Shown: one piece after another, positions 325 through 40,000 of the stretch
Position numbering within the stretch: the stretch's first letter is position 1
Layout: each line of letters opens with the position of its first letter
Assembly (NCBI GenBank): GCA_946628065.1
Contig: CAMOWC010000001.1
Location: 43,249 to 83,248, forward strand
Source: an uncultured Clostridiaceae bacterium
GTDB lineage: Bacteria; Bacillota; Clostridia; TANB77; CAG-508
Direction of reading: 5' to 3'
Length of the DNA stretch: 40,000 bases
Program-made: the position numbers and the translations under genes
Notes under the pieces: model-generated
Database searches by the model: none
What the model was told of the DNA's origin: nothing
What the model saw: the letters and a program-made list of their open reading frames with translations, nothing else

Positions 325-363
325 TAAAAAAAGAGACATGACTATTTTCAAGTCATGTCTCTT
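325..363 (-). terminator. intrinsic terminator downstream of the 370..627 ORF
   Basis: Perfect 13-bp stem aagagacatgact / agtcatgtctctt (331-343 and 351-363). On the minus strand it is followed by a T-run (the A-run at 325-332). Confidence 0.7.
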
Positions 364-369
364 GTGGGG

Positions 370-627
370 TTACCTGATTTTCACCTCGAGTCGATAGGTC
401 CTTTCGGGTTCATCAAGCTTTTTCAGCTTGAAGCCGTCTCGTCCGTAACGCTCAATCAGCGCTCGTTCAATGGCATCTTTCAGCTCCTTATGAGCCTTGA
501 ACACCACTGAAACAGTGAACATTATGTCGATATCGAAGAATCCCTCTGCCATGTTATTGGCAAAGATTTTGGAAATCTCCTCCATTTCGACAAATGAACG
601 CTCCTCTACTTCCCGAAGCTTACCCAT
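370..627 (-). CDS. hypothetical 85-aa protein on GC-rich cassette 1
   Basis: Complete ORF with an AAGGGGG RBS about 8 nt upstream of the ATG. Line 421-480 counts 30/60 GC, against 16-19/60 in host lines. It has its own promoter-like element and terminator. I recognise no family. Confidence 0.6.
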   Translation of the reverse strand: MGKLREVEERSFVEMEEISKIFANNMAEGFFDIDIMFTVSVVFKAHKELKDAIERALIERYGRDGFKLKKLDEPERTYRLEVKIR

Positions 628-674
628 GATGTGATACCCCCTTGCATTATTTACTCCACATGGAGCATATGTTT

Positions 675-703
675 ATTATACCATTTTTAGGCTTATTTTA
701 CAA
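675..703 (-). promoter_or_regulatory. sigma-A-like promoter candidate for cassette 1 (TTGTAA-17 nt-TGgTATAAT)
   Basis: On the minus strand, -35 TTGTAA is at 703-698, followed by a 17-nt spacer and an extended -10 TGGTATAAT ending at 675. The -35 lies inside the last codons of ackA (LVK stop). Confidence 0.5.
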
Positions 704-1883
704 GTTCCATAGTTTCTCTTGCAATCATTAGCTCTTCTTCTGTTGGTACAATCCAAACTTTTACTTTAGAATCCTTAGTAGAAATTTCTTTTTCTTCAGC
801 TTTAACTTTGTTAGCCTCTTTATCAAGTTCAACACCCATAAAACCTAGATATGAGCAGATTTCTTCTCTCTCATCTGGTCCTCTTTCTCCTACTCCTCCT
901 GCAAATGTAATTACATCAACTCCATTCATCGCAGCAGCATATCTTCCTATATACCCAGCTATAATATAGCAATATTCTTTTATTGCAAGTTTTGCTCTTT
1001 CATTTCCATTTTGAGCTTCTGCTAAAATATCACGATTATCAGCTGATATTCCGGATATTCCAAGTAACCCAGATTCCTTATTTAATATTCTGTTCATTTC
1101 AGAAGCGGAAATATTTTCTTGTTCCATTATATATGTTACAACTGATGGATCTAAATCTCCTGAACGAGATCCCATTGCTATACCACCTAAAGGAGTTAAT
1201 CCCATACTTGTGTCTATACATTTACCACCTTGAATAGCACATAAACTTGCACCTTGGCCAATATGGCAGTTAATGATTTTTAATTCTTCAGGTTTTTTTC
1301 CAAGTATTTCTGCTATTCTACCTGATACGTATTTATGTGATGTTCCATGAGCACCATATTTACGTACACCATATTTTTCATAATATTTGTATGGAATTGG
1401 ATATAAGTAATGTTCTTTTGGCATTGTTTGATGGAATGCTGTATCAAATACTGTTACATTTGGTTTCCCAGGTAATTCTTTTTGGCATGCACGGATTCCT
1501 TGAAGATGTCCAGGGTTATGTAGTGGTGCAAATTTAATTGCATCTTCTATTCCTTTTACAACTTCTTCGTCTACAACGACAGATTTTGTAAATTTTTCTC
1601 CACCATGTACAATTCTATGTCCTATTGCATTTATTTCATCTAAAGAACTTATCACTCCATGCTCACTATCTGTAAGTTGTCCTAAAATGAATGCAATTGC
1701 TTCTTCATGAGTCTTTGCCTCTCTTTCATATTTATATTTTTCATCACCAACTTTATGAGTTACAAAAGAACCTTCCATGCCTATTCTTTCATAATTCCCT
1801 TTTGCCATTACAGATTCATTTTCCATATCTATTAATTGATATTTTACTGATGAACTTCCACAATTAATAACTAATATTTTCAT
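693..1883 (-). CDS. ackA: acetate kinase
   Basis: 396-aa ORF starting MKILVINCGSSSVKYQLIDM, with HRIVHGG and AHGTSH motifs. It lies immediately downstream of pta. Confidence 0.93.
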   Translation of the reverse strand: MKILVINCGSSSVKYQLIDMENESVMAKGNYERIGMEGSFVTHKVGDEKYKYEREAKTHEEAIAFILGQLTDSEHGVISSLDEINAIGHRIVHGGEKFTKSVVVDEEVVKGIEDAIKFAPLHNPGHLQGIRACQKELPGKPNVTVFDTAFHQTMPKEHYLYPIPYKYYEKYGVRKYGAHGTSHKYVSGRIAEILGKKPEELKIINCHIGQGASLCAIQGGKCIDTSMGLTPLGGIAMGSRSGDLDPSVVTYIMEQENISASEMNRILNKESGLLGISGISADNRDILAEAQNGNERAKLAIKEYCYIIAGYIGRYAAAMNGVDVITFAGGVGERGPDEREEICSYLGFMGVELDKEANKVKAEEKEISTKDSKVKVWIVPTEEELMIARETMELVK

Positions 1884-36566: not shown

Positions 36567-39500
36567 TTATTCAGTTCTTAACGCTATAACAGGGTCTTTC
36601 TTCGAAGCTGCTTTAGCTGGAATTAATCCTCCAATTAGTGTTAGTATAACACTTAGAACAACCAAAACAACCGCATTAGAAATATAGAATGTAGCATTTA
36701 GCGGAATATTTCCTGTAAAATGATGTAGTATTGCATTTATTATTGGAATTACTGCATATGTAAATCCAATTCCAAATAATCCTGATAGAAGACCAATTAT
36801 AAATGTTTCTGCATTAAATATAGATGATATGTTACGTTTAGAGGCTCCAATCGCTCTTAAAATACCAATTTCTTTTGTTCTTTCATACACAGAGATGTAA
36901 GTAATTATACCTATCATCATTGAAGATACAACAAGCGATATAGATATAAATGCAATCAAAACATAAGTTACAGCATTTACTATTGTCTTTACAGAATCCA
37001 TAAGAATTCCAGTTGTATCAGTATAATTTATCACTTTGTCTTCTTTGCCATTTTCTTTTACCTTGTTATTGTAGTTGTTAATAAAATCTTTAAAATGTTC
37101 TTTTCCATCAAAGCTTTTAAAATAGAATCCAATGTATGTTGGCTCTTCTTTATCTTGATATCCAAAAAGTATTAAATTTGTTTTTGCATTTGTTTCAGTT
37201 TGTGATAGCATCGATGTTGCAATTCTTGTAATCTGTTCTTCACTCATATTCATTTGAAAAGCTTCTGCTATTTTATTTGCATCAACATTAAATGCTGAAG
37301 CAAAACTTTTGCTGAGTTCTCCAGTAAGATCTCCAACCTTTGATAATATATATCTTTTCATGAATGCTTCTGTCATATTTTTTGCCATTACTTCAGCTGT
37401 TTCCTTCATTGCAGCACTATTGACATATTTCGTAACAAATTCTTCAATTTTATCTTTGTCAAGTTTAGCTGTAGTATTTTTTGTATTATTGTTTGCAACT
37501 GTATTTTTTAGCGTTTCAGAAATATTGTTTGCTACATTTTGAATTATATTTCCATCTTTAGAATTTACAGAATCAGTATATGTTTGTAGTAAACCTTTTA
37601 AAGCTCCTGTATAAGTTGTTTTAAAAACGTCTTGAGGTACAGAATATTTATTGCCCAATTCTTTAAATATTTCTTCTGGTTCTTTTTCTGTGATATATTT
37701 TGAAACAACGCTTTCAATTTTTTTAGGGTCAATCTCTCCATTAGTTTCATCTATAAGTCCCAATGCTAGTGTCTTTAGTTTATTTATAAAGTCTTCTCTT
37801 GCTTTCGATATATCTGTTGTAATTGAATTTGCTATTTCTGTCATGTATCCTTCTGTCATCTTTTGAAACATTGATTCATCAATATTTATGTTAAAAGCAC
37901 TTTTTAACTTGTCTTGATCAACACTAATTAAATCAGTAAAATCCATATCTAATTTGTTTTTAGACTCATCAAATCTTTTCCCTGAAAGCACATCAACATA
38001 TTCGTTGCCAAGTTGTTTTTTTACAATTTCAGTATCTTGCGAATAATCAATTATATGGTCAATTAATTCTTTAGTATAAGATACACCTGGGTTTAGCGCA
38101 GCAGATGTAACGCCTTCTTTTGCTGTTACTATCCCCACAATCTTTAGCCTTTCACTATTATCATATATATCTTTTAAATAATTTTCGTCGTTAGACATAT
38201 CTTCATATATATCATATTTTTCATTGTATTTATATAAATTTGTTGGCATCACAAGTTTTAGTTCTATATTCATCAAATCTTCATATGTAAAATTCATAGC
38301 TTCATTACTTACATTTGCTGTTTCTCCAGCCATAATTTTGGATATTATTTCTGTAAGTTCTTCTGTATCTCTTAAGCCAAGCGAATAAACAAGCAAATCT
38401 GAAATTGAATTTTTATCTGATAATACGATTATCATTTCGTCATAGTTCTCTGGCCACCTGCCTGCAAGTACATCATATGAATTATTTAATGTTTCTTTAT
38501 CATCTATCATTTCTGAATAAATAGATGTAAAAGAACTCATTAATGATGATGTGCCAAATGAGGATCTAAACAGTGTCTTTGGACTTAGTTTTACGACCTT
38601 TTTAGTGTTATCTATTGCATATATATTTGGTTCAACACTGTATACGTATTTTATTGTAGATATATCATCTGAAATATCATTAAAATTTTTTTCTATATAG
38701 TTTTTAAAACTTCTTAAATCATTTGTGCTTAGGTTGGCTAACATTTTTGAAATATACTGTTCCTCTTTAATTGTGCCTTCATCACCTTTGCTATCACTAG
38801 ATGCTCTCATAGCTAGTAAAGTTCCTGCCACATCTGTTGTCTCTTGCATTACTGTTAAAGGATATGAAGTAAGAGTCTCTTCCTGTATGCTATCAACATA
38901 TGCTTGAAATCCATTTGAAACAGACTGTACAAGCGCAATTCCAATTATTCCAATTGAACCAGCAAATGCAACTAAAACAGTTCTTCCTTTCTTTGTAAGC
39001 AAATTGTTTAAGCTAAGTCTAAAGGCCGTCCAAAAGCTCATTGCTGTGTGTCCAATACTAGATTTTTCTTCTTTTATTTCTTCTTGATTTGCTATTGGAT
39101 TAGAGTCTTCTGTAATAACACCGTCAAGTATTTTTATAATTCTGCTTGAGTATTGTTCTGCAAGATCAGGATTGTGTGTTACCATTATTATCAGTTTATT
39201 TTTAGAAATTTTTTTAAGAATTTCCATTACTTGAACACTAGTTTTTGTATCAAGTGCACCTGTTGGTTCGTCTGCTAATATTATATCTGGATTATTTACA
39301 AGAGCTCTAGCAATTGCAACCCTTTGCATTTGTCCTCCTGATAATTGATTAGGCTTTTTATTAACTTGGTCTTTAAGCCCAACTTCTTCTAATGCTTTTA
39401 AAGCTCTTTCTTTTCTTTCCCTTTTAGGAATCCCGCCAATTGTTAATGCAAGTTCTACGTTTGATAAAACTGTTTGATGAGTTATTAGATTATAGCTCTG

Positions 39501-39767
39501 AAATACAAATCCTATTTTATAATTTCTATACGCATCCCAGTCTCTATCTTTAAATTTCTTAGTGGATCTTCCATTAATAATAAGGTCTCCAGATGTGTAC
39601 CTATCGAGTCCTCCTATAATATTAAGTAGTGTTGTCTTGCCACATCCACTTTGACCTAAAATAGAAACGAATTCAGCTTCACGGAACTTAAGGTTTATTC
39701 CTTTTAGCGCTTCTACTTTTTCATCTCCACTAACATAAGTTTTCTTTATGTTTTTTAATTCGAGCAT
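36567..39767 (-). CDS. fused ABC transporter ATPase / FtsX-MacB-type permease with a very large extracytoplasmic region
   Basis: Walker [10 protein letters not shown], signature LSGGQ and Walker B ILADEPT at the N-terminus. C-terminal FtsX-like TM bundle. 1066 aa. Confidence 0.85.
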
Positions 39768-39856
39768 ATAACTCTCCCTGTTTTTAAATCTATACTTTAA
39801 AAAATTTCATTAAATAATATACCACAAACCAAAATAATTATCAATTGTTCTGTTAA

Positions 39857-39897
39857 ATAAAAAAGAAAACCCCGCGACATTATTCGCGGGGTTTTCT
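39857..39897 (-). terminator. intrinsic terminator downstream of the partial ORF at the window end
   Basis: GC-rich stem gaaaaccccgcga / tcgcggggttttc. The A-run at 39858-39862 gives a T-run on the minus strand. Confidence 0.65.
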
Positions 39898-39907
39898 GCA
39901 GGCATAC

Positions 39908-40000
39908 TCATTTATTCTTACGCTTCAAGTAGCTCTGCCAGAGGCTTTCCATCTGTTTTTCACTCATGATGTGATTCTTGAGGAGAGCACGGACCAGGAT
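39908..40000 (-). CDS. C-terminal 30 codons of an unknown GC-rich ORF (cassette 5, continues beyond the window)
   Basis: The reverse complement reads ...ILVRALLKNHIMSEKQMESLWQSYLKRKNK then stop (TGA at 39910-39908). The GC-rich composition matches the other cassettes. Confidence 0.45.
   Translation of the reverse strand: MLVRALLKNHIMSEKQMESLWQSYLKRKNK

Follow-up and report, generated by a model that had tools for sequence, protein, structure and literature searches.

Small GC-rich gene units resembling phage morons between core genes of an AT-rich Clostridia chromosome

Introduction

ORFan islets are known from hotspots of horizontal gene transfer (HGT) in bacterial chromosomes, where they are flanked by core genes. 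Gram-positive bacteria also possess stabilised or self-repressed mRNAs, such as those with the 5′ stem-loop stabilisers of ermC and aprE, the STAB-SD of cryIIIA, and the 3′ untranslated region of icaR with its anti-Shine-Dalgarno (anti-SD) sequence. Integron gene cassettes carry attC, are promoterless and are arrayed next to intI/attI. Phage morons of the HK97 gp15 type are one or two small genes added as "more DNA" between conserved neighbors in a prophage, with a promoter and a terminator of their own (definition in PMC3594210). Here we analyze a stretch of 40,000 nucleotides from an uncultured Clostridiaceae bacterium (assembly GCA_946628065.1, contig CAMOWC010000001.1, positions 43,249 to 83,248 of the forward strand), hereafter the window, in which five short GC-rich segments, named c1 to c5, lie between housekeeping genes. 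A first-pass annotation made from the letters had described these segments as foreign mini-cassettes, each wired for expression, and had named a novel dispersal mechanism, a family of small accessory genes, and an artefact of assembly or construction as possible origins.

The segments share with phage morons the addition of one or two small genes between conserved neighbors, with their own promoter and terminator (predicted in the four complete units; the promoter of c2 is conserved in three genomes). The departure in composition is also shared, the GC content of third codon positions (GC3) being 0.41–0.69 in the open reading frames (ORFs) of the cassettes and 0.11–0.24 in the host genes, all of them. 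They differ in lying in a core housekeeping chromosome without phage genes or viral relatives, so that the defining prophage context is missing, and at least two of the units are stably common to species instead of varying between strains. As to absence from the same position in relatives, c4 is absent from L086, a family-level relative, whereas c1 and c2 are present in L082, a Clostridia metagenome-assembled genome (GCA_017524665.1). The closest known kind is the phage moron, here placed in a core chromosome and outside any prophage. ORFan islets of HGT hotspots are likewise lineage-restricted, atypical in composition, set between conserved core genes and free of mobility genes, but the cassettes are single small genes, five in 40 kb, and their composition has not converged although the neutral sites of their carriers are saturated. 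Integron cassettes are similar in being small, mostly single-ORF units that end in a hairpin, and one tandem pair occurs in L082. However, the units described here have their own promoters, their 3′ hairpins are ordinary T-run terminators without a conserved core, they are dispersed and not arrayed, and neither attC nor a nearby intI/attI was found.

Our best explanation, which we hold to be rather probable yet far from secure, is that the five segments would be natural, self-contained transcription units, each with a sigma-A promoter of the extended −10 type, a strong SD sequence, an intrinsic terminator and one or two ORFs for small cytoplasmic proteins. The products would be lineage-restricted accessory proteins of foreign origin, and the anatomy would be that of a chromosomal counterpart of morons, set in intergenic slots between co-oriented core genes, where the unit's own terminator would insulate the core gene downstream. 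Ancestors of a genus-level lineage may have acquired the units horizontally, and host sequence would have supplied part of each promoter: the final codons of ackA and tmcAL form the −35 hexamers of c1 and c4, respectively. Vertical inheritance as protein-coding genes, under purifying selection, would have followed for c1 and c2 at least. The products may be small cytoplasmic modulators, with the two ORFs of c2, c2b and c2a, acting as a two-protein module.

Results

The window, part of a gut/rumen Clostridia chromosome, averages 31% GC. A 200-nt profile resolves islands at 301–700, 3001–3700, 11601–11900, 33001–33400 (peak 0.555) and 39801 to the end over a background of about 0.31, and the edges are sharp at 40-nt resolution, with steps from 0.12 to 0.40 at position 331 and from 0.53 to 0.12 at 33401. 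Exactly five units are outliers: c1 (370–627), c2a/c2b (3014–3684), c3 (11657–11905), c4 (33068–33355) and the partial c5 (39908–40000). The five abrupt segments of the first-pass annotation are therefore recovered by the profile, by the edges and by the GC3 of each gene; its count of 30 G+C in the 60-nt line 421–480 was reproduced, and its ORF sizes (85, 107 + 110, 82 and 95 aa plus one partial) are correct. Milder GC-rich spots at 7301–7500, 24201–24500, 30301–30500 and 35901–36200 lie within host genes of normal GC3 and are consequently not cassettes. The GC-rich stretch is the transcribed unit, while the promoter itself is AT-rich.

The composition of the cassettes is foreign to the host, and so is their codon usage. 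At their four-fold degenerate sites each base accounts for about 25% (A 0.20–0.26, T 0.26–0.31); the host sites hold A 0.51, T 0.39, C 0.05 and G 0.06. The codons CGG and CCC occur 11 and 4 times in the cassettes and not once in about 4400 codons from nine host genes, and CTC makes up 19 of 81 leucine codons in the cassettes versus 6 of 382 in host genes. First and second codon positions of the cassettes have GC contents of 0.45–0.60 (GC1) and 0.27–0.45 (GC2). The GC-rich RNA genes of the window are those for RNase P RNA and tRNA-Leu(GAG), with no others, and GC-rich ORF islands are scarce across about 790 kb of other AT-rich relatives.

Each complete unit appears self-sufficient for expression, judging by its predicted signals. 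In c1, which lies on the minus strand as do c2, c3 and c5, the promoter TTGTAA-17-TGgTATAAT (675..703) overlaps the final ackA codons with its −35 hexamer, as it does in L082. A leader stem-loop GCUCCAUGUGGAGU (653..666) starts about 8 nt past the −10 hexamer and is kept in both L082 copies. The coding sequence (CDS) of 85 aa (370..627, GC3 0.55) has a 66% orthologue, P0003, in L082 but no match to a known family, and is followed by an intrinsic terminator with a 13-bp stem and a T-run (331..363). The c2 promoter TTGTAA-17-TGaTATAAT (3759..3787) is identical over about 32 nt in L082 and similar in L179, a third relative. Its leader stem-loop (3729..3753) has the core AGGC-AAUG-GCCU, which also stands upstream of c2b-family genes in L082, L166 and L178, and in which G-C replaces A-U in L179. 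The CDS of c2b (3361..3684, 107 aa, GC3 0.49) holds one copy of an uncharacterised domain. That of c2a (3014..3346, 110 aa, GC3 0.41) follows 14 nt downstream; it has no known-family match, a 60% orthologue in L082 and no counterpart in L179. The c2 terminator occupies 2976..3005. In c3, the promoter TTTACA-17-TGaTAAAAT (11947..11975), found by sequence reading and by the scan, is followed by the leader stem-loop UUAGGG-GCAA-CCCUAA (11924..11939), a CDS of 82 aa without known-family match (11657..11905, GC3 0.41) and a terminator (11618..11648). The plus-strand c4 has the promoter TTGTAA-17-TGtTATAAT (33007..33035), whose −35 hexamer overlaps the final tmcAL codons, a CDS of 95 aa (33068..33355) with the highest GC3 among complete ORFs (0.61) and again no known-family match, and a terminator with the stem CCCACCGC/GCGGUGGG and a T-run (33364..33395). 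Only the 3′ part of c5 is present (39908..40000; 30 codons and the stop, GC3 0.69 over 29 codons), the CDS running past the window end; its terminator (39864..39897) has a 14-bp stem with 8 G-C pairs.

The promoters claimed by the first-pass annotation for the four complete units are therefore present, three as TTGTAA-17-TATAAT (703–675, 3787–3759, 33007–33035) and one as TTTACA-17-TAAAAT (11975–11947). The TG two bases upstream of the −10 hexamer is found in all four on direct reading, although the scan flagged three and missed c4. A single promoter match is weak evidence, since such matches are common in AT-rich DNA (80 in the window against 59 expected from shuffles). The strong ribosome-binding sites (RBSs) that had been claimed are seen as AAGGGGG, AAGGAGGG, AAGGAGG and AAGGTGGG, the hairpin and T-run terminators occur in 5/5 units, and all units are co-oriented with their coding neighbors, as had been stated. 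These neighbors are core genes, encoding Pta, AckA, MutS, MiaB, TmcAL, CotJA/B/C, GatA and an ABC transporter. A stable stem-loop begins 5–8 nt after the −10 hexamer in c1, c2 and c3, three of the four complete units, which would place it at about the predicted 5′ end of the transcript. A C-rich stretch (CCCC/CCUC) stands directly behind the stop codon. An 11-nt sequence, TCTGACCGACC, common to the stop codons of c3 and c4 is absent from the other units and was counted as chance.

The 5′-proximal stem-loop near the predicted start, the very strong SD, the C-rich stretch after the stop and the strong terminator recall the ermC/aprE, cryIIIA STAB-SD and icaR types of mRNA; the difference is that pairing between the 5′ and 3′ regions of the cassettes is non-significant after control for composition. 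The layout of c2b and c2a, two adjacent small genes 14 nt apart under one promoter and one terminator, is that of a type II toxin-antitoxin pair. Homology to such systems was not found in Pfam, NCBIfam, PADLOC or the PDB, and pairing is not obligate, as c2b occurs without c2a in L179, L166 and L178. A type I toxin or hok-like mRNA does not fit either, the products being soluble-looking and 82–110 aa long versus a hydrophobic toxin of less than 60 aa, with 5′–3′ pairing at p=0.04 after control for composition.

No integrase or other mobility gene was found at the cassettes. Searches for terminal repeats, target duplications and a shared boundary motif gave low-complexity AT matches and nothing meaningful, so that the earlier statement of no integrase, transposase, terminal repeat or target duplication holds. 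A diversity-generating retroelement is likewise not indicated: the cassette flanks contain no template-like direct repeat, A is not depleted at four-fold sites, and no reverse transcriptase domain was present among the proteins scanned, which were part of those of the window.

Relatives bear on the age of the units. L081, an independent metagenome contig (whole-genome shotgun project AUXO01), is 100% identical to window 2424–3720 (1297 bp), spanning c2b, c2a and the junction with pta. In L082 the gene order tRNA-Leu(GAG), c2b, c2a, pta, ackA, c1, second ackA is as in the window; this allele was assembled in three further samples, and the orthologous locus was recovered independently in L082–L085. 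The copies in L082, L083 and L084 are identical and provide no within-species polymorphism by which mutations could be polarised. Between the window and L082, host genes have an amino acid identity of 85–97% and a synonymous divergence (dS) of 0.5–1.4. The cassette proteins are 60–69% identical (69% for c2b and its orthologue P0002), with proportions of nonsynonymous and synonymous differences (pN and pS) of 0.17–0.24 and 0.72–0.93. Because pN is well below pS, the ORFs of c1, c2a and c2b are real coding genes under purifying selection, and their rate of evolution is roughly fivefold that of core proteins. An unbroken alignment covers the c2 locus from the tRNA to pta, with promoter, leader stem-loop and RBS kept and with a compensatory A-U to G-C change in the terminator stem. 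The 587-bp contig L179 contains tRNA-Leu, promoter, c2b, terminator and pta, without c2a. In L086 the order RNase H, TmcAL, CotJA, CotJB, CotJC is kept and the c4 site is an AT-rich spacer of about 60–130 nt, from which it follows that c4 is a genuine addition. A metagenome scan based on TmcAL gave relatives of ≤60% identity only.

With c1 and c2 in the same slots of a sister species and the c4 site empty in L086, the comparison indicates that the units are lineage-specific additions and that at least c1 and c2, which evidently predate a species split, are old residents and not fresh insertions. An active dispersal mechanism, one of the possibilities raised by the first-pass annotation, is accordingly not supported: c1, c2a and c2b stand at the same positions in L082, and c2b is in the tRNA-Leu/pta slot of L179. 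That annotation had also proposed that its reading would fall if relatives carried the same ORFs with host-like composition; the ORFs are indeed present in relatives, but in L082 they are still GC-rich. Exceptional conservation of the flanks was considered and rejected, the identity of the promoter-bearing cassette flanks (0.90–0.92) being in the range of other promoter-bearing host intergenic regions (0.88–0.90).

In L082, positions 13004–13760 hold tandem c1-type units, c1′ (74 aa) and c1, whose proteins are 32% identical. Both units possess a promoter copy of their own, with the cTTGTAAAATA derived from ackA, as well as the leader hairpin CTCCAaTnTGGAGTAAAT and a terminator, in which the loop UUGAAAAUAG is conserved and the stems covary. 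Other GC-rich genes of L082 near the c1 slot encode a 158-aa secreted protein (15945–16421, minus strand, GC3 0.49) and, at 19939–20321, a protein with an SH3_3 domain (GC about 0.56), beside a tyrosine recombinase gene.

The GC content of the cassettes has persisted where that of the host has been lost. In L082 the cassette orthologues have a GC3 of 0.50–0.66 and the host genes 0.09–0.26. The window and L082 were compared at four-fold sites with a conserved amino acid, with a bootstrap confidence interval (CI) on the memory (lambda squared) of strong (S, G/C) and weak (W, A/T) states. Host four-fold sites are 8% GC, and of about 56 sites with G/C in one genome, 7 have G/C in the other; the host memory is 0.05 (95% CI −0.04 to 0.145). 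For the cassette sites the values are 40% GC (window) and 49% (L082), with S/W states uncorrelated (14 shared observed versus 14.1 expected). Passive decay at the neutral rate of the host, starting from an acquisition that preceded the split, would demand an ancestral four-fold GC of 1.5–1.9, or of 0.93–1.15 at the upper confidence limit. Passive amelioration thus does not fit, as the host memory of G/C has been lost and the cassettes are still 40–49% GC. If all third positions are used in place of four-fold sites, the required ancestral GC3 is 0.62–1.06. All nine cassette CDSs from the window and L082 fold better than their dinucleotide shuffles (z −0.9 to −4.8, mean about −2.3), with 10 host controls at about 0. 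RNAalifold covariation counts on two sequences were judged uninformative.

Sequence searches of the cassette proteins against Pfam, PHROGs, NCBIfam, PADLOC and the PDB gave nothing significant. The cassettes had no match in three viral-contig scans, nor did any of the five peptides by tblastn in collections of phages and plasmids, and the peptides are not significantly similar to one another by blastp among the five or by hhalign. The earlier view that they are mutually dissimilar and belong to no known family is upheld in this respect, with c2b now joining an uncharacterised family. Among 5.8 billion proteins c1 has one homologue, the L082 orthologue; a concatenated query of c3, c4, c2a and c5 returned nothing in a large protein search; and no homologues of c1 or c2 were found in GC-rich pta relatives. 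The AlphaFold 2 (AF2) model of c1 has a predicted local distance difference test score (pLDDT) of 72.6 and an alpha-beta-alpha-beta-beta arrangement.

According to profile searches, c2b is a member of an undescribed domain family with 181 clusters (at 50% identity) for E up to 1e-3 and 27 for E up to 1e-10. The core of about 60 aa reads NG[VI]xAFxDxxGxxYVxP...G[YF]....VPFSNGExP. Members are mostly about 240 aa long with two copies of the core, and some have up to 10, while c2b itself has a single copy. All named members are "hypothetical", and Pfam has no model for the family. The carriers are mostly uncultured and largely Clostridia-labelled metagenome assemblies (P0004–P0152 among the members). 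In the window c2b is the only member, with c3, c4 and c2a outside the family; c3 was tried as a remote relative and rejected at an hhalign probability of 1.9%.

Discussion

The abrupt shifts in composition, each accompanied by neat expression signals, might be produced by a chimeric assembly or an engineered construct. This can hardly be credited, since L081 is identical across the junction, orthologous loci and their junctions occur in another species and in three further assemblies, and the islands coincide exactly with the boundaries of transcription units. Alternatively, the islands could be genes for structured non-coding RNAs in which the ORFs are incidental, as GC-rich islands in AT-rich genomes usually are RNA genes, with RNase P as one such case in this window, and as the whole units fold with z-scores of −3.3 to −6.8. 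We consider this very improbable. Both the ORFs and the strong RBSs persist between species, pN is far below pS, predicted pairs are not conserved between orthologues, and c2b belongs to a protein domain family of 181 clusters; moreover, the covariance models of Rfam 15 match no cassette at the gathering score and give nothing beyond chance level even at E up to 1.

The history of the composition is harder to settle. Ordinary horizontal transfer from a high-GC donor shortly before the species split, followed by slow passive decay, is the default expectation for compositionally atypical ORFans; the estimate from all third positions makes it partly feasible, and the cassettes of L166, L178 and L179 (GC3 0.25–0.30) look like later stages of such decay. 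Nevertheless it is improbable in our judgment. Four-fold sites demand an ancestral GC of at least 0.93–1.15 even at the upper 95% limit, the GC1 and GC2 of the cassettes are unlike those of a donor of 65–70% GC, and since the outgroup L179 also has c2b in the matching slot, a single acquisition would have to be older still. Substitutions polarised by L179 show no excess from G/C to A/T (W>S 11 and 18 versus S>W 7 and 9), in a test that is biased by the AT-rich outgroup. Recurrent replacement would relieve the difficulty: promoter, 5′ hairpin and terminator would form a fixed expression site whose insert is swapped from a GC-richer pool by recombination or by a hairpin-directed mechanism, and as the inserts would then be recent in each lineage, no force would be needed to hold a GC content whose retention is hard to explain otherwise. 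Three contents are found in the one tRNA-Leu/pta slot, namely c2b and c2a with GC3 of 0.50/0.41, c2b and c2a with 0.66/0.57, and c2b alone with 0.29. The tandem c1-type units of L082 have diverged proteins under similar promoters, leaders and terminator loops, the c2b leader core AGGCAAYRGCCT accompanies single-domain c2b genes into other genomic contexts, and one c2b homologue resides in a host of about 40% GC. Yet we find recurrent replacement doubtful, for no donor was found, c1 having a single homologue and the cassettes no plasmid, phage or viral-contig match, and c1 and c2 homologues were not found even in GC-rich pta relatives. The flanks are conserved no more than ordinary promoter-bearing intergenic regions, the alignment of the window with L082 has no sharp junction and shows gradual compensatory change in the terminator stem, and searches yielded neither a recombinase gene nor a boundary motif in common.

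Acquired moron-like units, with c1 and c2 inherited vertically, are the explanation that we prefer, but several results weigh against it as well. Conservation in a sister genome is seen for three of the six ORFs (c1, c2a and c2b), and the amelioration test comprises 72 cassette sites and takes host four-fold sites as neutral. None of the cassette products was assigned a function by the searches, the c1 model resembles no known fold significantly (PDB matches with E no better than 0.4), and the AF2 model of c2b is unusable (pLDDT 43). A role of mRNA structure is not favored, as predicted pairs are kept in the orthologue no more often than background (0.36 versus 0.36, p=0.54) and pairing of the 5′ SD with the C-rich 3′ end is marginal against composition-matched shuffles (combined p=0.04). 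High GC as a property of the c2b family was rejected, since distant members have a GC3 that is host-like or mildly raised: 0.44 for L172 in a host of about 40% GC overall, 0.26 for L174 (host GC3 0.17), 0.25 for L176 (host 0.25), 0.30 for L166 (host 0.15), 0.25 for L178 (host 0.19) and 0.29 for L179. Finally, to hold a four-fold GC of about 0.45 against an equilibrium of about 0.08 requires, from the equilibrium odds, a 4Nes of about 2.2 per site, which is large for small accessory genes.

RNA-level selection, a family property, slot replacement and fixation bias were thus all considered as causes of the GC retention, and none is satisfactory. Selection at the RNA level would act on general GC content or foldedness and not on a particular structure, because the pairs are not conserved between orthologues. 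It is possible, though we hold it tentatively, that a fixation bias on the transcribed unit maintains the GC content, through GC-rich, more folded or longer-lived mRNA, through decoding by rare tRNAs, or through GC-biased gene conversion in recombination-prone slots. More speculative is the broader proposal that this AT-rich Clostridia lineage keeps small-protein genes at about 45% GC, either by local fixation bias or by fixed promoter/hairpin-terminator slots with exchanged inserts. In the case of fixation bias, the mRNAs may be built to be decoded or to persist under conditions in which bulk AU-rich mRNA is not decoded or does not persist, such as sporulation, dormancy or an active ribonuclease toxin, and rare decoders, among them the adjacent tRNA-Leu(GAG), may be needed for them.

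What is new here is the persistence of a foreign composition across saturating divergence, an anomaly that rests on two to three genomes and few sites, and the c2b domain family, which has not been described. Atypical composition can therefore not be read as recent transfer, and c2b defines an unannotated protein domain family. If fixation bias or cassette exchange holds the GC content, the window would offer a natural experiment in which, in the same genome and over the same divergence time, synonymous-site equilibria of 8% and 45% GC are found within a few hundred bases. This would bear on what sets bacterial base composition, whether mutation, selection or biased gene conversion, and on the retention of orphan small proteins. 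Either of the two would also represent a new way of organising accessory genes in a core chromosome.

Other features of the region

The RNase P RNA (bacterial class A, 4867–5254, minus strand, 278.6 bits) is an ordinary GC-rich island, and Rfam matched nothing else in the window. The tRNA-Leu(GAG) gene (3835–3920, plus strand) is the divergent neighbor of the c2 unit in the window, in L082 (9769–9853) and in L179.

Related AT-rich Clostridia have a promoter form as at c2, TTGYAA..TTATGTAAA..TGnTATAAT, ahead of further short orphan ORFs of 71, 97 and 121 aa (L006 7178–7199, L026 1277–1297, L102 15417–15437). It may be a strong promoter typical of the clade or a shared regulatory site.

Next to c4, the call of a 148-aa CotJA ORF (33373–33819, plus strand) is probably over-extended through the c4 terminator, whose T-run then reads as poly-Phe; the start after the AAAGGAGGA site near 33466–33469 is a better one. 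In the metagenomic relative L102 (12960–17010) the cotJC homologue is interrupted by an insert of about 3.4 kb, which carries the gene for a large serine recombinase (518 aa) on the opposite strand and resembles the skin-type intervening elements of sporulation genes. Two reading frames together encode the TmcAL homologue in 5/5 independent contigs (L103, L104, L106, L107 and L108), with the break at residue 45/46, and L104, L107 and L108 also have a cotJC homologue split at residue 63/64. Either frameshifting or recoding is conserved here, or the contigs share an error of assembly. At the other end of the window, two paralogues of the acetate kinase family stand in tandem (1–256 and 693–1883, minus strand) with c1 between them, and the same arrangement is seen in L082.

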